The notes under the pieces were generated by a model that saw only the letters and a list, made by a program, of their open reading frames with translations, was not told the origin of the DNA and did no database searches. Made by a program: the position numbers and the translations under genes. Shown here piece after piece: positions 1,962 to 39,723 of a stretch of 64,000 nucleotides of DNA. Numbering within the stretch: position 1 is the first letter of the stretch; each line of letters starts with the position of its first letter. Where the stretch lies: the sequence record PZ386955.1. The stretch is one strand, 5' to 3'. The DNA comes from a phage.

Positions 1962-3698
1962 TTAGTTTACCAGTTTATTTATATCTGGTAAAAGATTTAT
2001 TTCACCTAAAAAATCACCTTCACCTTCCTCTAACCAACTCTCATATGCTTGTGCATGATTATAGTTACCATCAAAAGAATCTGCAACAAATTTTTCTACA
2101 GCTTTTCGAGATGTGCCAGCGCCAAATACACCAAGTTTAATACCATTGATCGGTAAAGTGGTACTTGTGGGTACTTTCTCTGTTGCAACACGGTTGATAT
2201 CTATAATCTCCTGTACGGTTGTGTTCCATTGTAAGCATTTAACACAACGGGTATGCGCTACATACAGTAGGTTTCGCTCTGCCTCTTCCAGTCCTACCCA
2301 TTCACCAGTCTTTTTATCATAGTTGGAAGGAAAATCATTAGCAACAATAACCTGATCCCACTCCAAACCTTTAGACTTGTGTGCTGTAGTAAGTGTGACT
2401 TTTGCTGTAGGAGAATTTCTGTGCGTTCTAAGTGTATGTGCTATGGTGTTCGCCTTACCAGAAACTACGATGTTTAACAAGCGTTTAGCATCTGGATCAG
2501 CCTCTGCACACTCAACAAATTCATCCCAGTCTGCGTAAGGTAATACAGTTTCATGTTTTACTTTCTCAATATCTCCTCTACGAAGAGCATTAACACTATC
2601 TACCATAGAGATAAAATCCCTGGTATCTACGTTAATAATAATTTCTTCCCCATCTGCAATACGATCCATTGCCTCCATAAGCAAGGTTAAATTCTTGCGA
2701 AAGATGATAGTGTAAGGTTTTGTATAGTCTACAACATCTGATTTGTAGCTACCTACTACAGTATCAAAGCCTTTACCAACCAAAGGGTGACGCAAAGGTT
2801 CTTTATCGCTTAAAATCATATTGGCAATGTTTGCCACTTTTGGGCCAAAACGGAAGCAAGCAGTTAATGGAAGCTCTGCCCCATATGTAGATGTTTCCTT
2901 CATCATATTTTGGCTTCCACGGAACTGGTAGATGCTCTGATATTCGTCACCCACCACTACTACTTGTTTTGCAGATTTAGCATTTCGCAGAATAGACAAG
3001 AATGCAGGGTTAACATCCTGGAATTCATCACCAAAAATAATATCATAACCAAGATCAGCACCAGACAATTCAAACAATTTTACATAGGTGTCATGCGTCA
3101 TCAAAGTATCTGTGTTAGGATCGATGCGCTCTCGCCACAATTGTTTTGCATACTTAACTACTTCTGTAATTAGTTTGTGTTCGTTAATACCTTTTCTTTT
3201 AATATCTGCAAGATGTACACTAGGAAAATGTTTACGGCTGATAAAAGGATCATCCGAAAATTCAAACTTACCTACGGTTTGTTTGATCATTAAACCAATC
3301 ATAGCACGAGTTAAAAGTGTTTTCCCTCGTTTATCAATAAGATTATTAATCTTAAATTTCTTTGCTATTTCGCTACCTGTACCTGCAACGTTAACATACT
3401 GTCCTTCTGGTCGTGACAGTTTTGCACGTAAACGATGATCCAGGAATTGATAGCAAATAGAATGCAATGTACGGCATTCTACATTTAGTGGCATCTTACG
3501 TCGTGCTTCTTCTGCCATGCTTTTATTGAAAGCTAAGTAAAGAATGCGATCTTCTGTACTGTTAGCCAGCAAATAAAGTGTTGACGTTTTGCCTGATCCA
3601 GATTTAGCTTGGATAGTTAAAAAGCGATGGTCTGGAAAAGCCTCCTTAATAGCTGTTTGCTCTTCTGTTGGAGTGAAGCTCAACTCTTTCTTAGCCAT
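1962..3698 (-). CDS. UvrD/PcrA-like superfamily I helicase (P-loop ATPase)
   Basis: Walker A AKSGSGKTST, motif II FGDEFQD, TLHS motif; start moved to internal ATG (MAKKEL) with RBS AAGAGAGG. Confidence 0.7.
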   Translation of the reverse strand: MAKKELSFTPTEEQTAIKEAFPDHRFLTIQAKSGSGKTSTLYLLANSTEDRILYLAFNKSMAEEARRKMPLNVECRTLHSICYQFLDHRLRAKLSRPEGQYVNVAGTGSEIAKKFKINNLIDKRGKTLLTRAMIGLMIKQTVGKFEFSDDPFISRKHFPSVHLADIKRKGINEHKLITEVVKYAKQLWRERIDPNTDTLMTHDTYVKLFELSGADLGYDIIFGDEFQDVNPAFLSILRNAKSAKQVVVVGDEYQSIYQFRGSQNMMKETSTYGAELPLTACFRFGPKVANIANMILSDKEPLRHPLVGKGFDTVVGSYKSDVVDYTKPYTIIFRKNLTLLMEAMDRIADGEEIIINVDTRDFISMVDSVNALRRGDIEKVKHETVLPYADWDEFVECAEADPDAKRLLNIVVSGKANTIAHTLRTHRNSPTAKVTLTTAHKSKGLEWDQVIVANDFPSNYDKKTGEWVGLEEAERNLLYVAHTRCVKCLQWNTTVQEIIDINRVATEKVPTSTTLPINGIKLGVFGAGTSRKAVEKFVADSFDGNYNHAQAYESWLEEGEGDFLGEINLLPDINKLVN

Positions 3699-3699
3699 T

Positions 3700-4176
3700 T
3701 CAACCTCTCTTAATTTGTTTAACAAGCATAGGAACAAAATCTCGTTTTAAAATTTGTTCAATAATATGATCAGGTAGCTGTTGGAAATTATAATTAAAAG
3801 CTACTGTCTCACCTTTAGGTGTTTCTACCCGCACATATAACATGTTACGAAGTTTATCCACTTGTGCTGTATATTCTAAACCATGTAATTGATGCATTGC
3901 AAACATCAAATCATCAGTTTCAGTTTGGAATCTATCATTTGCTTGCATTAAAGACAAGGTAAAAGGTAGATTTTCCCTAAGAGCCACCTTCTTAGGAACT
4001 AGTGAAGGAAAATACTCACCAATAACTTCCTGTGTAAGCTGGATACACTCTTTTTCAAGTTGGTTTTGTTCCTTAAGTTCACAAACACTTTTTTGTAAAG
4101 TGTTAACCTCTTTTTGCAAAGCTGCTAGTTGAGCACTTAACTTTCTTTTTTGATTACGACCAAAACGTTTAGACAT
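3700..4176 (-). CDS. hypothetical protein
   Basis: 158 aa ORF, coiled-coil-like N-terminus. Confidence 0.55.
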   Translation of the reverse strand: MSKRFGRNQKRKLSAQLAALQKEVNTLQKSVCELKEQNQLEKECIQLTQEVIGEYFPSLVPKKVALRENLPFTLSLMQANDRFQTETDDLMFAMHQLHGLEYTAQVDKLRNMLYVRVETPKGETVAFNYNFQQLPDHIIEQILKRDFVPMLVKQIKRG

Positions 4177-4184
4177 ATTTCCCC

Positions 4185-4700
4185 CTAGTAAAACCCTTTA
4201 ACAATCTGTATTAACTCGGCACAACGGTTGACCAACTTTTCCTCATACAATACACGTTGTGGCATATGTTGTATAATATACTCCATTTGCTCATGCCATG
4301 TCCACTTTTCTTTTTTGTCCGGGATAACATCACTAGCACGAGAATTATCTTTTAATGTTTGTATAATCCAATTGCTTGGAAAGTGCTCTCCACCTTTCTT
4401 AAATGGTTTATAGTGGCCTAGAGTGAATTGAGAATCCCCTGTTAGAGCACCCAATTTATTTAGATGGATAATCAAACTACGAAACACATAGTATTCATAG
4501 ATGTTATCCACCGTATAGCAAGCATAATATTTCAAGATGCCCTTATCTCGCGGATACTTACCAACATCCAGATTGCACCAGTTGACATTTTCTGGATCAT
4601 AGTGGTGTTCCTTAAGCCATATTTCTCTTTCATCAAAGTCTGGATATATTACCGCTCTGCTTACAGAGTCAACAAGTGGAGATTGAGCATCAAAAAACAT
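4185..4700 (-). CDS. hypothetical protein
   Basis: 171 aa ORF, co-oriented. Confidence 0.55.
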   Translation of the reverse strand: MFFDAQSPLVDSVSRAVIYPDFDEREIWLKEHHYDPENVNWCNLDVGKYPRDKGILKYYACYTVDNIYEYYVFRSLIIHLNKLGALTGDSQFTLGHYKPFKKGGEHFPSNWIIQTLKDNSRASDVIPDKKEKWTWHEQMEYIIQHMPQRVLYEEKLVNRCAELIQIVKGFY

Positions 4701-4721
4701 TATATTTTCCTTATTGGTTTG

Positions 4722-5087
4722 TTAAACGTTTTCTAAATCTTTTAAGGCATTACCCAACGTTAGAACAATAACATCGTTTGCTGCCTCTTCCCCATTGATA
4801 TTGGTGAAATTTGGTGTTACAAAAGTAACCATATAAAACTCGTCCACCTGGAAGATAGCAATAACACCATCCATCTTAACATCTTGACGAAAGGAAAAAC
4901 CAATCATCTTCTCTTGCAAAGGCATATCCCCTTCCTTCATTACCGCTAGGGAGTTTTCAGGAATGTTATATTTATCTGCTCCAATGTAGATGTACGTAAT
5001 GTTATCTTTATCGTGATGATACAGGGTTGCTTTTTCCATATCTAAACCTGACAGATCAAATACGTTAATTTCTTGTGTAGTCTTCAT
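4722..5087 (-). CDS. hypothetical protein
   Basis: Track ORF 4722..5162 trimmed to internal ATG (MKTTQE) preceded by RBS GGGAGGA. Confidence 0.5.
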   Translation of the reverse strand: MKTTQEINVFDLSGLDMEKATLYHHDKDNITYIYIGADKYNIPENSLAVMKEGDMPLQEKMIGFSFRQDVKMDGVIAIFQVDEFYMVTFVTPNFTNINGEEAANDVIVLTLGNALKDLENV

Positions 5088-5451
5088 AAATATCCTCCCA
5101 AATCCAATAATCATCTGTGTAAGTAGGATGCCTTTTATCCCACTCTGTTCTAGCCCAAGCAACCGCTGCTACCAACACATCACCATGACAAGGTTGAGGT
5201 GAGCAGAAGCAAACTAAGTCTTTCCCTTCTAATTCTAACAAATCCTCAAGAGTGATTTTACCACAACGAATTTGTTCCCACAACCACTCTTTATATCTTT
5301 GTATAGTTGACCCTCGTGGTTCATCATCCTTTAACTTAAAAGGATTTGCAAACTTTGAGGCTTTTAACCCCATATGAGGCATAGCTCTGCCAATGTAAAC
5401 TGCACCTTCAGGTATTACTTTACCTAAGTGGTAGAAATTCAATACTCTCAT
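5065..5451 (-). CDS. DUF4326-like protein
   Basis: Motif VYIGR...SKFANPF typical of DUF4326; start placed at internal ATG (MRVLNF), track start is TTG. Confidence 0.55.
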   Translation of the reverse strand: MRVLNFYHLGKVIPEGAVYIGRAMPHMGLKASKFANPFKLKDDEPRGSTIQRYKEWLWEQIRCGKITLEDLLELEGKDLVCFCSPQPCHGDVLVAAVAWARTEWDKRHPTYTDDYWIWEDIYEDYTRN

Positions 5452-5452
5452 A

Positions 5453-5803
5453 TTAACCCAAACACATTTGTGCAATCAAGCCCTGTATAAATTTATTAGC
5501 TTCTTTACTGTCGTAGTCAGTTTCTTCTGGATATCCATCTTCATCGTACACAACTGTACCTTCAATATACCCTGCCTCAATTAAGGCGCGGATCATATCA
5601 AATTGCCAGCATGAGTTACCAAATGGACGTTTACCATTAAAACACTCTTCTTCTCTCCATAACGTAGAGAGTAGTTGTCGGAAATATTCCCGTACAGTGA
5701 CAGTACCAAGATCTGAATCCTCAAACATAACATCCAGGGCATCAGGATTGCTTTTCTCTACATAAGGGATATATTTAACACCATTAATAGTTACATCAAG
5801 CAC
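5453..5803 (-). CDS. hypothetical protein
   Basis: 116 aa ORF, co-oriented. Confidence 0.55.
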   Translation of the reverse strand: MLDVTINGVKYIPYVEKSNPDALDVMFEDSDLGTVTVREYFRQLLSTLWREEECFNGKRPFGNSCWQFDMIRALIEAGYIEGTVVYDEDGYPEETDYDSKEANKFIQGLIAQMCLG

Positions 5804-6166
5804 TTATTTCTCCTTATCATCATATTCTAGGAACATATCTGCACGATATGCTTTACGCTCTTCAAACTTAGCAGGATCTACAACAATAAGCAATACAAGG
5901 TTAACATCTAAATACTTCTTAACAAATAGAAATAAATCTTTTCCACAGTTAAAACCTATACCAGTATAGGCATCCCCATATTGATCTACTGATTTGATCT
6001 TCTTACTAACCGTACACTCTATGCTATTCTTTTCTTCTTGGTATAAGGCTTTCCCACCCCAATATGTAAAGAATTTAGTACCGTCAGCACCAAGTTTAAA
6101 ACCCTCTGTTGCATGTCCCGCAAATGAAAGTAAGCATAACCAAGTGATCATCAGGTACTTTAGCAT
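5804..6166 (-). CDS. putative secreted protein
   Basis: Start at internal ATG gives N-terminal signal-peptide-like MLKYLMITWLCLLSFAGHA. Confidence 0.5.
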   Translation of the reverse strand: MLKYLMITWLCLLSFAGHATEGFKLGADGTKFFTYWGGKALYQEEKNSIECTVSKKIKSVDQYGDAYTGIGFNCGKDLFLFVKKYLDVNLVLLIVVDPAKFEERKAYRADMFLEYDDKEK

Positions 6167-6167
6167 T

Positions 6168-6650
6168 TTAACCACCCAATTGCAAATGTTTAGAAAGAAC
6201 AATATCCCACTGATCACCACAACCGTTATCTATGCGGAACATAATGTACGTATCATCTTCTTCTACGACATATAATACTTCATAGGAATTACAACAGCCT
6301 TCCCAATTTTTAACAGCCTCTGGTGTATCATGTGTAAAAATTTCATTACCATCATATGACCAAAACAAAGGGGTAAGGTTTTCGAAGGTCAGTGAAGTAG
6401 GGTTTACTTCATCTTTAACTGCTTCCTCATATTCTTTATGCGTTTGTACTGCTTTAGTTAGTGTACTCATGTCTATCTCCTTTTCTCCTTCTTGACTATG
6501 GAGGATAGCAAACTCTCTAAACTCCACTTCACGCCACGTTTTTAGGTAGTGCTTTATAATTTTATCAACATCTGCCTGTTCAACATTACTTTTCAAGCAA
6601 TAGTAATCATGGTCTTCGCCCATTCTACCCCATATGCTATACATTGTCAT
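6168..6650 (-). CDS. hypothetical protein
   Basis: 160 aa ORF, co-oriented. Confidence 0.55.
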   Translation of the reverse strand: MTMYSIWGRMGEDHDYYCLKSNVEQADVDKIIKHYLKTWREVEFREFAILHSQEGEKEIDMSTLTKAVQTHKEYEEAVKDEVNPTSLTFENLTPLFWSYDGNEIFTHDTPEAVKNWEGCCNSYEVLYVVEEDDTYIMFRIDNGCGDQWDIVLSKHLQLGG

Positions 6651-6918
6651 CTGATTGATCCTTTACATTGTTCTTGGCATACACAGGAATAACATCATTA
6701 TGATCTTTATTACTTTCATCTGTTAAAGCCCAAAACAACTTACCTGCTGGATGTTTAAAGATGTAAGCAATAGGTTCCTCTTCCTGGGCTTCTTTGCTAC
6801 GGATACCATCCCGCCAGGCAAGCCAAGTGTAGATCATCACTTCTTGACGTTCTTCTTCGTTAGGCCACATATGTGATGGAAAGTTTTTATCAAACCATTG
6901 CTTAAATTCTTCAGTCAT
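6637..6918 (-). CDS. hypothetical protein
   Basis: 93 aa ORF, RBS AAGGAG upstream. Confidence 0.55.
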   Translation of the reverse strand: MTEEFKQWFDKNFPSHMWPNEEERQEVMIYTWLAWRDGIRSKEAQEEEPIAYIFKHPAGKLFWALTDESNKDHNDVIPVYAKNNVKDQSDDNV

Positions 6919-6928
6919 AGTCTACTCC

Positions 6929-7093
6929 TTAGCGTACAAAGTTAACTTCTGCTTCTTTCAGCTTTGACACTTCTACATAACCACCATGATCATCTTTAAT
7001 CCATTCTTTTCCTTTACGGATGATAACAGGATATGTAGAGTGAGTAAGTTTAGGTACAGATCTTTTTGTTTTAGTGATAGAAATGTTTTGCAT
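6929..7093 (-). CDS. hypothetical small protein (54 aa)
   Basis: Not in track (<60 aa); ATG with RBS AAGGAGA, fills gap between neighbours. Confidence 0.4.
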   Translation of the reverse strand: MQNISITKTKRSVPKLTHSTYPVIIRKGKEWIKDDHGGYVEVSKLKEAEVNFVR

Positions 7094-7153
7094 AGTAGTC
7101 TCCTTAGTAAATTTTACATAGAGTCTAGATTATTTAGTAGATAGAGTCAATAA

Positions 7154-7420
7154 CTAATTACTGTTAGATCTGTATTCTGTCTTCCATTCACAATGGTAAA
7201 CTTCAACAGGTTCTAACTTCCAATGTTCAGGAACTAATTCAGGGCAATATCTACAAAAGAGAAATAGATAGATAACTAAGACAGGTATTAAATAGTAAAA
7301 TGGTATACGATCATAACCATACTTACGAGATAACATGTAGACATATAGATAGGGTATAACAATTAATCCTATAACTATAAGTAAGAAGAGAAGTATAAAC
7401 CTTAGTGTAGTAACATCCAT
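7154..7420 (-). CDS. putative membrane protein
   Basis: 88 aa, two hydrophobic segments; 7-bp stem-loop then RBS AGGAGA upstream. Confidence 0.5.
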   Translation of the reverse strand: MDVTTLRFILLFLLIVIGLIVIPYLYVYMLSRKYGYDRIPFYYLIPVLVIYLFLFCRYCPELVPEHWKLEPVEVYHCEWKTEYRSNSN

Positions 7421-7498
7421 AGTATTCTCCTATACAGTAATATACTCTGTTCCTGCCCCTCCATGAGTGACAGGAACAATATCTATAGAGAATACTAA

Positions 7499-7559
7499 CT
7501 CGCTTCGCTCGTCACCTTTCAGGTTTAGGGTAGCATGTTTTTCTGAAAAAGTCAATACT
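7499..7559. repeat. conserved ~60-bp intergenic element, copy A (CTCGCTNTCGCTCG ... TTAGGGTAGCATGTTTTT ... GAAAAGT)
   Basis: Near-identical copy at 35662-35719; both on plus strand although flanking genes are on opposite strands. Confidence 0.5.
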
Positions 7560-7583
7560 CTCCACAAAACTTTACAAAATACT

Positions 7584-7856
7584 TTACATAGGTACAACAG
7601 AGTCTGTTTTGAAGTCGTACATATGATTTACACCTGTGATTTTTGACATAGAGATTGCACGTTTAGCACCTGCAATTACCTGGTCTGTCTTCTTAATCTC
7701 TTCACGGAACTTACGTACAGTTAAAGAGAAGAAACGATGATCCATCCATTGACGATTCACACGATCACGCTTGAAGTGACGGAAATCTTCAATCTGTTTA
7801 TTGCGCAATCGGCGCAGTACATGCAATAGTTGATAGTAAGGGTGTTTATTTTTCAT
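7584..7856 (-). CDS. hypothetical protein
   Basis: 90 aa basic ORF. Confidence 0.5.
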   Translation of the reverse strand: MKNKHPYYQLLHVLRRLRNKQIEDFRHFKRDRVNRQWMDHRFFSLTVRKFREEIKKTDQVIAGAKRAISMSKITGVNHMYDFKTDSVVPM

Positions 7857-7859
7857 AAT

Positions 7860-8288
7860 TTATTCTCCAAATCGAAAATCGTCAATATCATCAAACCATA
7901 CACAATGGCGAGTCCTTTCTTTTTCTGTTGCAGACATTGTTTCAACAGCTTTAGGACTAAGCACAACAGGAATGTAACGAACAGGTCGTTCATAATAGTA
8001 GCCATACTTTTCTGTATTAGCTGCCTCAAAGACTTTACGGCGTTCTTCAAGATCTTCTATGGTGAATCCTACCATATAACCATCATGTTTGCTACCCCAT
8101 CCTTCCTCACTTTCAACAATCGGGATATAAAAGCCGTTACGCGTCCCTGACGCTGGTTTTTCTTGAGCCTGAAGGCAAGCCTCCCATCCTGCTTTAAAGA
8201 CGTTATAGAGCGATTTACGCACGTTATGAGTGCCGCTTTCGCTTGCTGGATAGAGTTCATTAAATTTGTCTTGAATTTGTTGTGTCAT
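7860..8288 (-). CDS. hypothetical protein
   Basis: 142 aa ORF. Confidence 0.55.
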   Translation of the reverse strand: MTQQIQDKFNELYPASESGTHNVRKSLYNVFKAGWEACLQAQEKPASGTRNGFYIPIVESEEGWGSKHDGYMVGFTIEDLEERRKVFEAANTEKYGYYYERPVRYIPVVLSPKAVETMSATEKERTRHCVWFDDIDDFRFGE

Positions 8289-8431
8289 ACTCGCCCCTTA
8301 GTGATTATTTGACCAACTAAACAAATAGCTTGTAGTACAATAAAGAAGTAGCCTAATTTTACACTACCCAATACCCAGAATGCAATGTTTGCAAACAAAC
8401 AAAAAGCAATATTAAGTCTAAAGAATAACAT

Positions 8432-8632
8432 TTAATCCCCTTCATATTTAGGTAAAGGCATATATGCCACAATAGGAGGGTAATCAAAGTGAAAATGATG
8501 GTTCACCACAATAATCTTACCAGACATACTTTTATGCACTTCACAATACCCTTTTTCACCATCTTCCATTACCACCACATACTCACCTAGTGGGATATCG
8601 TATGGATCTTCTACTTTTACCCATTCTGTCAT
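8432..8632 (-). CDS. hypothetical protein
   Basis: 66 aa ORF, RBS GAAGGGGA. Confidence 0.5.
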   Translation of the reverse strand: MTEWVKVEDPYDIPLGEYVVVMEDGEKGYCEVHKSMSGKIIVVNHHFHFDYPPIVAYMPLPKYEGD

Positions 8633-25191: not shown

Positions 25192-25205
25192 ATAACATTT
25201 CACAC

Positions 25206-25232
25206 CAGGGCGCACAAAGCGCCCTTTCTTTT
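25206..25232 (+). terminator. rho-independent terminator
   Basis: GGGCGC-ACAAA-GCGCCC followed by TTTCTTTT. Confidence 0.6.
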
Positions 25233-25490
25233 ACCTCAATAAAGATGATAGCTTTTACCTATCAAAAACGTTCACCGAAAAAAGTGAATAGATCGCGGTA
25301 TCGAGCTAATCAAGGAGCAGATGAACAACCATACCATGAAGATCATAAGGCGCTTACAACGCGTTTTAGACCGCTTGTTTTTAATTTCTCCATGTAACTA
25401 TCTGGCAAAAACAGCCTTTTTCTTGTCTTTCCTCTTAAATAATAATCATTCTCATTTGTAGCTGATTATTTATGCAATAAACTGAATAAT

Positions 25491-25514
25491 GCAATAATGA
25501 TAATCATTCTTAAC
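25491..25514. promoter_or_regulatory. Fur-box-like motif, copy 2
   Basis: AATAATGATAATCATTCTT, 16 of 19 matches to GATAATGATAATCATTATC; partial copy at 25441-25458. Confidence 0.4.
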
Positions 25515-25885
25515 TTAAGACCATCTAACCTATAAAATAATAAGCTATCTAACTAAATTAAAGCTAATTATCTCACCTTTATTTATAACTTACTGTTACT
25601 ATCTCATTGATAACCTTATATTAAACAACAATAACTAATATAAATCATTACCAAGCTAAAGATAAGCTATCTAACCTTTAAAACTATAACTATAATCTAT
25701 CGAATTGTTGCACAAAGTAACTATTAAATTGTTAGTAACATTACTAAATAATTAATATCCTATCTATTTATGATCTAATCTTTACCTTCCTATCTATTAC
25801 CTAAATAATCATTTCATACAATAACTATAACAAGAAATATAATTCGCAAGCGTATCATTAGCAGCCTATGCCGGACACATAGGCG

Positions 25886-26031
25886 GCTAATAATAACGCA
25901 ACTACACACCCCACATAATAACCATCACCGATAGTTATTATTTGTGCTTATGTAGCTTGCAACAATTGCAAGCGCAACAATATACATGGTATATTGTATC
26001 CCTTACATTGTTGCGGTGCGTTATTATTAGC
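25886..26031. repeat. nested inverted repeats / palindromes in non-coding region
   Basis: Perfect 15-nt arms GCTAATAATAACGCA inverted ~110 bp apart; internal palindromes GCTTGCAA-CAA-TTGCAAGC and ACAATATAC-ATG-GTATATTGT. Confidence 0.6.
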
Positions 26032-26360
26032 TAATGTTTAGAACATTGGCTATAATATAAGCTATCCAATAATAATAAGCTATACAATAATAAACATAGT
26101 GAATAATGACCCCCGATGATCATAATGCGCCACCTTCCAGGGGGCGCTATGTGAACACAAAGAAACCTTTCTTGTCAAGAAAAATATTGCCACTATTGCG
26201 CAAAATTATTTATATCTGAATAGATGATTTTTCATACTATTGCCCCCAATACTATCCCTATTTGTTGCCCTAACTATTGTCATTTGTTGAGCCTACTTTC
26301 TTAAAAGCGCAATAAATCAGAATTATCTTGATTTTTAGGGCGTTTTATAGTATAGAAAAT

Positions 26361-26384
26361 ATGCAAATGATAATCATTATCAGC
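26361..26384. promoter_or_regulatory. Fur-box-like motif, copy 3
   Basis: GCAAATGATAATCATTATC, 17 of 19 matches to Fur consensus. Confidence 0.4.
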
Positions 26385-26548
26385 TATCTTCCACGGGTGG
26401 CACTATTTCACGCAGGATCATTTCATTTGGCAAGGTGTATATAGATGTTTAGACTTGCCAAGCCATTGATTTACTTAGAATTTATCTGTTTTGTTGTGAG
26501 TAGTACCTTTCTTGCTCAGAAAATAATCAAAAGTCTTATAAGTCATTG

Positions 26549-26577
26549 AATGATAATGCAAATGATAATTATTCTCA
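26549..26577. promoter_or_regulatory. Fur-box-like motif, copy 4 (tandem half-sites)
   Basis: GATAATGCAAATGATAATTATTCTC. Confidence 0.35.
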
Positions 26578-26950
26578 TTGATATTTGAGGGGGACGGTCG
26601 GCAGAAATCGGGGGGCGCTGAAAATCGCGTTAAGCACCTCTCGCAAGCGAGCAGTATTTTGCGGCAAGTTATTGATATTATTGACTTTACGCTTATGAAA
26701 AGGGGGTGTGTCGAAATAAATCGGGTATACCGGAAAAATTTTGTGGCATAGATATTTATTTGTCTATATTATGTACAAAGGGGTGTGTTAAAAATAATAG
26801 GTATATATAGAATAATTGATAGGGAATACCTATACTAATTCCTATACTAAATCCTTCATTAATGATGTTTCTATGGTGCTGTTCTTGTAATAGATGAAAA
26901 GACGCTGTATGATGTGTGGCATGAAACGTAAATTTATAAAGGAGTCTGAT

Positions 26951-34884: not shown

Positions 34885-35054
34885 GTTATTATGTTGTACC
34901 CTATGCCAATAAGTGGAGAGTAAGAGAAACTTGTTTTCTATTCTCCTGGTGGGCTACGTTCGGAGATGGTTGTGGAAATGATACAGGGAAGCCTGTAGAG
35001 TACGACACAAAAGAAGAATGTGAACAGTGGATAAAATTAACACAAAGATGTTGA
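34881..35054 (+). CDS. hypothetical small protein (57 aa)
   Basis: Not in track; ATGA-coupled to upstream gene. Confidence 0.4.
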   Translation: MSYYVVPYANKWRVRETCFLFSWWATFGDGCGNDTGKPVEYDTKEECEQWIKLTQRC

Positions 35055-35107: not shown

Positions 35108-35332
35108 ATGAAGTCTGTAAACAAGTTGCAACAATTTTTGTTATCAACAGCAATCTTTTTGCTTTTGTTAATTGGTATTCTGTATGGTGCATCTAACTTA
35201 TACAATCTACATAATGATGTAGAACAGAATAAAGAGAAGTGCATCATTCTAAAACACAAGAAACAAGCAGAAGATTTCTTAAAGAATAAGTGTTACAACT
35301 ACATTGATTATGAGGAGACAAACAATGATTAA
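35108..35332 (+). CDS. membrane-anchored protein, paralog family B member 2
   Basis: RBS AAGGAGGG; TM segment; C-terminus KEKCIILKHKKQAEDFLKNKC. Confidence 0.55.
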   Translation: MKSVNKLQQFLLSTAIFLLLLIGILYGASNLYNLHNDVEQNKEKCIILKHKKQAEDFLKNKCYNYIDYEETNND

Positions 35333-35567
35333 AGAATTAGGTATGCGAGTATACAGTGAGTGGACTCCAAGCAATGGCCCAGGAGTTGTTGCAGCTAAAT
35401 GTATCAATGGTCGTATTGAGTACCTGGAAGGGTATGAAGATAATGAAGAGTTAGTAGATTATGCTAAATCTTTTATTGAAGATGATACAGACTTTATTGT
35501 ATTATATGATACAGGAGAGTTAGAGTATGGATATGATGGAGATGGGGATATCTTTGAACTTCAATAA
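35325..35567 (+). CDS. hypothetical acidic protein
   Basis: Trimmed from 35304 to ATG after RBS GAGGAG. Confidence 0.5.
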   Translation: MIKELGMRVYSEWTPSNGPGVVAAKCINGRIEYLEGYEDNEELVDYAKSFIEDDTDFIVLYDTGELEYGYDGDGDIFELQ

Positions 35568-35661
35568 GAGTAGTAAGTAAGGTATAAAGAGTATATAGTT
35601 AGTTATAGAGTTAGTAACATTACATATACTCTTTCCATGTATAACATGGAATATTCTCTAC

Positions 35662-35719
35662 CTCGCTATCGCTCGGTATATAAGATTAGGGTAGCATGTT
35701 TTTTACGAAAAGTAAAACT
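35662..35719. repeat. conserved ~60-bp intergenic element, copy B
   Basis: CTCGCTATCGCTCGG ... TTAGGGTAGCATGTTTTT ... GAAAAGTAAAACT; matches 7499-7559. Confidence 0.5.
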
Positions 35720-35774: not shown

Positions 35775-35993
35775 GTGTACAAATTATATAAAGGAAAAGA
35801 TAAGTTTACGGGTAATACATCTGGTTTCTATGTAACACCACGTGGTGTTGCTGTGTTCGATTGGATCTCTGGTACGCCAGATCGTGAAATGATCTCTCTT
35901 GTAAAACTGTCAGAACAAGATTATACTTACGGTGACATTACAACATTCTATTCTCGTGCAGAAAATCCAAAACTGATTGCGGAGTGGGAATAA
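35775..35993 (+). CDS. hypothetical protein
   Basis: 72 aa, GTG start after RBS GAGGAG. Confidence 0.5.
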   Translation: MYKLYKGKDKFTGNTSGFYVTPRGVAVFDWISGTPDREMISLVKLSEQDYTYGDITTFYSRAENPKLIAEWE

Positions 35994-39625: not shown

Positions 39626-39655
39626 TAAAGCCCCTAGAAGCGATTCTAGGGGCTT
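39626..39655. terminator. bidirectional rho-independent terminator at convergence of plus and minus blocks
   Basis: AAAGCCCCTAGAAGCGATTCTAGGGGCTTTT with A/T runs on both sides. Confidence 0.6.
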
Positions 39656-39723
39656 TTGTTTGCATTAGATAGGGAAACGTATTACTAAAATAAAAAGTGC
39701 GTTAGAATGCGTTACAGGAGGTT

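Follow-up and report, generated by a model that had tools for sequence, protein, structure and literature searches.

An intergenic element repeated in a phi92-like coliphage is probably the core of a minus-strand promoter-plus-leader cassette

The analysed DNA, a stretch of 64,000 nucleotides (nt) from a phage (sequence record PZ386955.1; the whole stretch is hereafter the window), harbors an intergenic element of about 60 bp in two copies, termed A (7499-7559) and B (35662-35719). We propose that this element is probably the core of a promoter-plus-leader cassette of ~110 nt, which acts on the minus strand and belongs to a separately controlled class. On this strand, both copies present a -35 hexamer, a spacer of fixed length, an extended -10 block and a short box with the base pairing of a small hairpin, and cassettes of the same architecture are kept at corresponding positions across phage genera, in sense at A and at a third position, C, and in antisense at B. 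A preliminary description of the sequence had regarded the element as conserved, non-coding and functional, in agreement with the present analysis, whereas its plus-strand reading proved wrong. With ~98% identity to Justusliebigvirus phages (phi92, W22, VEcB and others) over 3 kb around copy A and over 1 kb around copy B, the window is that of a phi92-like coliphage of Justusliebigvirus, subfamily Stephanstirmvirinae.

The two copies share an identical 18-mer, TTAGGGTAGCATGTTTTT, located on the plus strand at 7525-7542 and 35686-35703, at the places first described. It occurs exactly twice in the window, with no further matches at up to three mismatches, compared to a mean of 0.12 in shuffled sequences. 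A GC-rich block and a third block are also common to both copies, but the copies differ here by indels rather than by the substitutions previously given: the GC-rich block, said to carry a T/A substitution, reads CTCGCTTCGCTCG in A (7499-7511) and CTCGCTATCGCTCG in B (35662-35675), a 1-nt indel, and the third block reads GAAAAAGTCAATACT versus GAAAAGTAAAACT. Read on the minus strand, the element gives a near-consensus sigma70 promoter, TTGACT-17-TGcTACCCT, with the following parts.

7550..7555, minus strand: -35 hexamer TTGACT of copy A, from the sequence and the homologue set
7525..7535, minus strand: extended -10 block TGCTACCCTAA of copy A, read from the reverse complement of the 18-mer core, with TG at 7535-7534 and the hexamer TACCCT at 7532-7527
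7519..7521, minus strand: expected transcription start of copy A at about 7520 (G), 7 nt after the -10, placed by sigma70 promoter geometry
35711..35716, minus strand: -35 hexamer TTTACT of copy B
35686..35696, minus strand: extended -10 block TGCTACCCTAA of copy B, with the hexamer at 35693-35688
35680..35682, minus strand: expected transcription start of copy B at about 35681 (A), placed by promoter geometry

The spacer that separates the -35 from the -10 is 17 bp in copies A (TTGACT), B (TTTACT) and C (TTGACA), the last of which lies outside the window. All three share the extended -10 TGCTACCCT, in which the TG at -15/-14, T-12, A-11 and T-7 are present, and the hexamer TACCCT matches TATAAT at three of six positions, which are the three key ones. 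A promoter on the plus strand was rejected, as no acceptable spacing is found there; on that strand the box is pyrimidine-rich with C.T mismatches and folds worse.

The neighbouring genes lie on the minus strand at A and on the plus strand at B, as had been noted. Copy A sits between the minus-strand open reading frames (ORFs) 7584..7856 and 7154..7420, and copy B between the plus-strand ORFs 35304..35567 (phi92 gp023) and 35775..35993 (gp024). Since the two copies are oppositely placed to their neighbours, an ordinary gene promoter at both sites is impossible, and this earlier conclusion holds. With the minus strand as the acting one, copy A runs with local transcription and only copy B is antisense. 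The copy A promoter has the direction of the local genes and precedes, by 100 nt, an ORF equipped with a GGAG ribosome-binding site, whereas the copy B promoter opposes gp023 and convergently faces a plus-strand promoter-like site at 35051. A conserved small minus-strand ORF was looked for after copy B and not found. A downstream gene in the same orientation follows the cassette at A, at C, at their counterparts in other genera and in the islands described below, and is missing at B and at the phAPEC8, phiWec179 and ZCKP1 counterparts. The ORF after copy A is as follows.

7420..7154, minus strand: hydrophobic ORF of 88 aa at the phi92 gp208 position, with its GGAG ribosome-binding site at 7430-7427

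This ORF is unannotated in the near-identical phage W22, and a shorter form of it is annotated in phi92 as gp208.

The genome and its relatives were searched for further copies, as the preliminary description had advised, which revealed copy C as well as copies in other genera. A profile of 38 homologues, run unfiltered over the window together with sequences L003 and L004 (the whole phi92-type genome), detected exactly three copies: A at 7555-7495 (E 1e-16) and B at 35716-35658 (E 4e-14), both on the minus strand, and C outside the window (E 2e-11), the next-best match having an E of 2.1. The three copies are 28-60 kb apart and in mixed orientation. Copy C reads TTGACA - 17 - TGCTACCCT ... 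CGAGC-GCA-GCGAG; it lies in the divergent gap between gp106A and gp107 and is directed at gp107, the head of a block of phosphoribosyl-pyrophosphate (PRPP) synthetase, NAMPT and tRNA genes. The inverted repeat of a T-run and an A-run, pointed out earlier in A and B, is indeed present in both; it is missing from copy C and from several homologues and is therefore no defining part. Separately, a promoter-like site TTGACT-17-TAGAGT preceded by a very AT-rich stretch is located ~190 nt downstream of copy C (L003 12112-12140; phi92 ~48.11 kb), and it is kept in the Phapecoctavirus counterpart (L030 ~1513-1485).

All 56 of 56 Justusliebigvirus records have the copies at the same loci. Beyond this genus, where coverage is by partial genomes, BLAST identified the cassette in Phapecoctavirus (phAPEC8, phiWec179, ZCKP1), in the Klebsiella phages FKP3, KP13-16 and KP13-26, and in Citrobacter phage Tr1. 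The best-matching copy in phAPEC8, phiWec179 and ZCKP1 is antisense to all local genes, and the phAPEC8-type copy adjoins a homologue of gp024 (37% protein identity), with an unrelated gene on the other side; this antisense copy is the counterpart of B. It shares 79% DNA identity over ~95 nt with copy A. The cassette is in sense in FKP3, KP13 and Tr1; an 89-aa homologue of the 88-aa ORF of the window follows the A-position cassette in Tr1, and the homologue of this ORF is decayed in FKP3. In a phAPEC8-like viral contig (L030), a copy with a GCA loop lies two ORFs from a gp106A homologue (41% identity, E 1e-32) and points with the downstream ORFs; it is the Phapecoctavirus counterpart of C. The cassette has therefore been kept at all three places, the antisense one included, across genera in which the flanking proteins are ~40% identical, its own DNA remaining ~79% identical. 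Further copies in sense placement, which the preliminary description had named as an argument against its own reading, do exist (copy C, A-position copies elsewhere and the island copies), yet the antisense copy B is itself conserved.

Altogether 38 distinct homologues were gathered from phages, viral contigs, metagenomes and assembled genomes. The -35 is TTGACT in 28 of them, TTTACT in seven and TTGACA in three, and the spacer, variable in sequence with an A-run near its 3' end, measures 17 bp in 35/38 and 18 bp in 3/38. The TG, which the collection did not force, is present in 38/38 and is followed by C (35), G (2) or A (1). The motif TACCCTAA and the arms CGAGC/GCGAG are identical in all 38 versions, leaving ten box positions and the 11-nt -10 block strictly invariant, an invariance that is partly by construction because the collection patterns fixed TACCCTAA and the box arms. 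True members were told from chance matches by unforced features, namely the spaced -35, the TG, a C before GAGCG and homologous downstream sequence. The linker from the -10 to the box varies from 9 to 16 nt, and the box loops are GAA (17), GATA (14), GCA (3), GAAA (2), GTAA (1) and GAAT (1). The idea that each paralogue has its own loop (GAA in A, GATA in B, GCA in C) was rejected, as some A-position copies have GATA (L166, L228, L233).

The box lies ~8-25 nt into the predicted transcript, separated from the -10 in A and B by 12-15 variable nt. ViennaRNA gives the same small hairpin for every leader, in which the outer pairs are followed by a 2x2 internal loop (G.A/A.G), a stem of GC/CG and a loop of 3-4 nt. 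In 12 of 24 distinct hairpin variants the box is flanked by a C-G pair and in nine by an A-U pair, and the third outer pair is formed in 23. Overall, 88.9% of cells are paired, compared to 77.4% in column shuffles and 29-50% in slid registers; none of 500 shuffles reached the observed pairing or covariation score. Moreover, only the promoter-sense strand has G.U and G.A pairs; its complement folds worse. A second hairpin is found in each sequence but is not alignable; the motif of its 5' arm, TTCCTG/TTCATG, is kept in A, B and the island copies. The leader elements of the two copies are listed here.

7499..7511, minus strand: box CGAGC-GAA-GCGAG of copy A, a GCGAAGC mini-hairpin with tandem G.A flanks, C-G closure and outer pairs GTGA/TTA
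7448..7478, minus strand: second, larger leader hairpin of copy A, TGTTCCTG...CAGGAACA, from the minimum-free-energy fold
7514..7524, minus strand: short inverted repeat ACCT-GAA-AGGT (IR1) of copy A, spanning the expected start
35662..35675, minus strand: box CGAGC-GATA-GCGAG of copy B with outer pairs TAC/GTA; RNA fold -7.9 kcal/mol, z -3.7
35633..35651: hairpin TTCCATG-TATAA-CATGGAA of copy B, the second leader hairpin when read on the minus strand and a weak terminator-like site behind gp023 when read on the plus strand

The cassette also occurs outside these phages. Its whole length of ~130 nt, leader hairpins included, is found in DNA otherwise without similarity to phi92, at the following places.

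L021/L252: viral and metagenome contigs, L021 being a 22.8-kb contig classed viral, 3413-8575
L169: 505-kb contig of a Scandinavium genome bin (Enterobacteriaceae), 3194-7138
L173: 243-kb bacterial contig, 3060-7400

The three island copies (L021, L169 and L173) are all in sense. A tyrosine integrase gene lies immediately upstream on the same strand in L021 and L169, while the L173 stretch starts ~0.6 kb upstream of the cassette. Behind the cassette come 0.7-1.5 kb devoid of sizeable ORFs and then an operon of replication type, in which two or three small ORFs precede an endonuclease VII homologue, which was confirmed by Pfam in L021, matched weakly and below the cut-off in L169, and was assigned in L173 by ORF size and order. 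A DUF5906 primase-like protein of 409 aa comes last in L021, with an ORF of 411 aa at the matching position of L173; the L169 stretch listed ends before this position. The island looks like an integrative, self-replicating element of the satellite type. Neither the phage cassette nor the island cassette has any similarity in 5,426 complete E. coli genomes.

In addition, the box is found with longer complementary flanks, TGTCAT(T/C)CCGAGCG-NA-GCGAGG(A/G)ATC, as a dispersed repeat in Bacteroidales, Acidobacteria, Alphaproteobacteria and other bacteria (contigs L196, L204, L210, L213, L200, L202, L221, L188 and others, from bacterial genomes). The tandem-G.A mini-hairpin has therefore been reused widely as a module, and the co-occurrence of TACCCTAA with the box in those contigs is probably due to chance. 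A loose scan for TTGAC...box yielded chance matches among the matches listed and one informative locus, L123 (6278-6390, minus strand), from an uncultured phage of 32% G+C that is unrelated apart from its NAMPT gene. Here TTGACT-17-TAATAT is followed by tandem boxes, CGAGCGTAGCGAG and CGAGCGACAGCGAG, 30 nt apart; as these boxes stand behind a canonical promoter, the box can occur without the TACCCT -10.

The present architecture suggests how the cassette might work. Host RNA polymerase with sigma70 would bind the -35 (TTGACT/TTTACT) and, across a spacer of 17-18 bp, the extended -10 TG-C-TACCCT, and would start ~7 nt downstream of the -10, near 7520 in A and near 35681 in B. The box CGAGC-G(N)NA-GCGAG would then fall in the first 25 nt of the transcript and may fold into a stem of GC/CG whose loop is closed by G...A, together with tandem G.A pairs, one C-G pair and one to three covarying outer pairs, with the second, larger hairpin behind it. 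Three such cassettes are present in every phi92-like genome. Copy A would drive the gene of a small membrane protein, and copy C would drive gp107, a gene of nucleotide and nicotinamide adenine dinucleotide (NAD) salvage, together with the tRNA block. Copy B, without a downstream gene, would fire against the early genes gp023 (35304..35567) and gp022 and produce an antisense or convergent transcript. Since the -10 block and the box arms do not change whereas the parts lying between them drift, we infer that they mark one class of start sites, read by a factor and separately controlled.

For the box, the -10 with its invariant CCC and antisense copy B, one scenario, which we consider possible and on the unlikely side, is that the -10 block and the box form the cis target of a factor made by Stephanstirmvirinae, which would give the class its own timing; the islands would be satellites that sense their helper phage, and copy B would be a programmed antisense shut-off of the early gene pair. 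In a variant of it, the cassette would be a transcription-primed origin with a mini-hairpin in the displaced strand, shared by phage and island.

The closest known counterparts are the promoter-early stem-loop (PeSL) cassettes of T4-type phages (Arbiol et al. 2010, PMC2839356; Comeau et al. 2014, PMC4122927). Like these, the present cassette is short, repeated and intergenic, combines a strong sigma70-like promoter and AT-rich upstream sequence with an adjacent stem-loop, and often stands beside small variable ORFs, with several sequence classes coexisting in one genome. However, its host phages are Stephanstirmvirinae and not T4-like, and its copies are three, far apart and in one case conserved in antisense, whereas PeSLs are many and are clustered in hyperplastic regions, where they flank ORFans. 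It also differs in its fixed non-consensus -10 TACCCT, in a mini-hairpin of fixed sequence downstream of the start instead of a variable G-run/C-run terminator, and in that recombination between copies is not seen (one indel near A was located). The clustering of PeSLs is better matched by another set of units in the same phage. About 13 near-consensus sigma70 promoters lie on the plus strand at 15.1-24.8 kb, each with a conserved GC-rich hairpin that follows the -10 by 8-10 nt (such as GGGCGGGAAAtggTTTCCCGCC or GGGCGGCAatagTGCCGCTC), and their starts are as follows.

15144, 15500, 16990, 17780, 18198, 18516, 19230, 21536, 21904, 22475, 22750, 23550 and 24733, plus strand: starts of the early promoters

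A promoter followed by a leader hairpin is therefore the general design of the early region of this phage, and the three-copy class would be distinct from these ordinary early cassettes at 15-25 kb.

In the related phage rV5, 11 extended -10 (TGn) sigma70 promoters have been predicted (PMC3606486). The present promoter is similar to extended -10 sigma70 promoters in its -35, its 17-18 bp spacer, the TG at -15/-14 and T/A/T at -12/-11/-7, and differs in the CCC at -10 to -8 and the following AA, which are present in every collected copy, the pattern having fixed TACCCTAA. Its C at -13 and C at -8 are features favoured by sigma-S.

The box core, GCGAAGC in A, GCGATAGC in B and GCGCAGC in C, corresponds to the mini-hairpin DNA GCGNAGC / GCGNNAGC of Hirao; a 2026 review (PMC13037366) reports that this motif has a much greater stability as DNA than as RNA, and names phage priming sites and N4 early promoters as places where it occurs. 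The rule GCG-N-AGC / GCG-NN-AGC holds in 37 of the 38 versions, the exception being GCGAATGC in phage Tr1. By contrast with the known motif, the core is here enclosed in tandem G.A pairs and a C-G pair, within the predicted leader of a host-type promoter. A hairpin promoter of the N4 type, which a phage-encoded virion RNA polymerase would read, is not supported: no RNA polymerase is annotated in the phi92 stretches listed, and the longest ORF of the window has 753 aa.

Antisense promoters inside phage operons are exemplified by lambda OOP and P22 sar. Copy B is similar in opposing the early gene pair upstream of it, but no short terminated RNA can be defined at B, and the same promoter type fronts ordinary genes at A and C. 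A small purine-loop hairpin early in early transcripts also recalls lambda nut (boxA + boxB), whose boxB differs in stem and loop; no N-like protein was identified, and a boxA-like sequence was not noticed on reading the leaders, though no formal search for one was made. The cassette was not described in the literature searched. Its reading as a promoter is ordinary. Unusual in themselves are a -10 that is fixed yet non-consensus, the motif of the mini-hairpin, an antisense copy that is conserved and the presence of the cassette in integrase-primase islands as well.

Several observations weigh against a promoter with a leader hairpin acting in RNA. As a -10 hexamer, TACCCT is poor, with three of six matches; chance alone readily yields sigma70-like matches (212 in 153 kb in our own scan), and the counts of the promoter tool equal its shuffled expectation. 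Copy B has no obvious product or terminator, and no transcriptome of the phi92-like phage group was found in the literature. The RNA folds, at -3.5, -7.9 and -5.8 kcal/mol (z -1.1, -3.7 and -0.3), have ordinary energies, DNA folding is also unremarkable (z -0.07 to -1.5), and RNAalifold on seven leaders gave almost no consensus structure beyond the outer box stem; standard energy models are assumed to lack terms for the mini-hairpin motif. The 38 versions are related by descent, and part of their constancy was, as stated, built into the collection. Furthermore, the linkers that run from the -10 to the box, 21 of them distinct, mostly hold a short inverted repeat of variable sequence, such as AAACAT/ATGTTT in the phAPEC8 B copy and AACC/GGTT, AAAC/GTTT or ACCC/GGGT elsewhere, with a mean best stem of 3.19 compared to 2.15 in shuffles (0/2000 reach it). 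As its 5' arm lies at about -5 to -2, upstream of the start, this repeat would be absent from the RNA of this promoter; it is the best argument for a component at the DNA level and hints at one.

Such a component would be central if the cassette were a transcription-primed replication origin or a single-strand initiation signal, with T4 oriF/oriG, G4-type primase sites and RSF1010 ssiA as templates. The promoter would open the DNA and form an R-loop, and the displaced purine-rich strand would fold into the short repeat, GCG(N)NAGC and the larger hairpin, stabilising the loop or recruiting primase or a helicase loader. This would fit the 37/38 loops that obey the G-N(N)-A rule of Hirao's mini-hairpin DNA, the greater stability of the motif in DNA than in RNA and its reported presence at phage priming sites and N4 promoters (PMC13037366), the bases upstream of the expected start in the first inverted repeat, the 57-78% purine in the first ~30 transcribed nt, and the primase-like protein encoded by the cassette-carrying islands; copy B would also need no downstream gene. 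We nevertheless hold an origin to be unlikely. Genes run leftward at 1-10 kb, rightward at 10-39 kb and leftward at 40-64 kb of the window, and the GC skew tracks these directions, shifting only where transcription switches and showing no change at B. Copy A directly precedes a ribosome-binding site and a gene, an AT-rich stretch suited to unwinding is clear only downstream of copy C, the DNA folding energies are those given above, and the wobble pairs of the G.U type in the outer stem suit RNA somewhat better. No origin has been mapped in this phage group. A rather improbable alternative is that the box, the -10 block or both are a double-stranded DNA operator, overlapping the promoter and forming no hairpin, for a phage repressor or activator. 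The strict invariance of the ten box positions and the 11-nt block would suit an operator, and gp026 and gp027, 0.6-1 kb from copy B, are annotated as 'potential transcription regulator'. However, the bases flanking the box covary as base pairs, its arms are mirror repeats (GAGCG/GCGAG) and not inverted repeats, its centre has either 3 or 4 nt, and its distance from the -10 varies from 9 to 16 nt.

The likeness to PeSLs raises another reading, in which the cassette would mainly provide homology for shuffling the genes it flanks, with regulation secondary. In its favour, phi92-like phages and phAPEC8 have unrelated genes beside B, the gene that follows the cassette in FKP3 has decayed, and the cassette is shared with otherwise unrelated islands. 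We find this quite improbable, given that only three copies exist, 28-60 kb apart and in mixed orientation, that the positions A, B and C are stable across genera, and that the one indel located in the 3-kb region around A, a deletion in VEcB, is more than 1 kb from the cassette. A bidirectional terminator, a mobile mini-element and a nuclease target, the options originally put forward, are very improbable, and the first two are rejected. The weak terminator-like hairpin at 35633-35651 adjoins B, but no terminator-like site lies within 7499-7559 or 35662-35719, and the T-run/A-run inverted repeat of A and B has no G+C stem and is missing from C. The flanks show neither terminal inverted repeats nor target duplications, and the positions A, B and C are occupied in several genera with homologous flanking genes at all three, which argues against mobility; the cassette matches none of the 5,426 E. 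coli genomes. The analysis gave no support for a nuclease target. No Rfam family was matched at gathering score anywhere in the window, and relaxed thresholds gave nothing but noise around A and B.

The cassette offers three precisely predicted start sites, along with a short signal of fixed sequence that is open to mutation. Phages of the phi92-like and phAPEC8-like groups are common candidates for therapy, and for the timing of their gene expression the cassette raises the questions of a second promoter class beside the ordinary early promoters, of its reader and of antisense silencing of an early module. Should the link to the islands be functional, it would point to satellites of a large group of virulent coliphages and to the signal they use.

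Two further features of the window were observed. A hairpin with a perfect 13-bp stem and T-runs on both strands is located at 39627-39656, where the rightward and the leftward gene block converge, and looks like a bidirectional terminator. The 1.7-kb region 25200-26900 has a G+C content of 0.33, is almost without ORFs and contains several AATGATAATCATTATC-like repeats, at 25438, 25496, 26366 and 26560, that resemble the E. coli Fur box, along with other families of short repeats.

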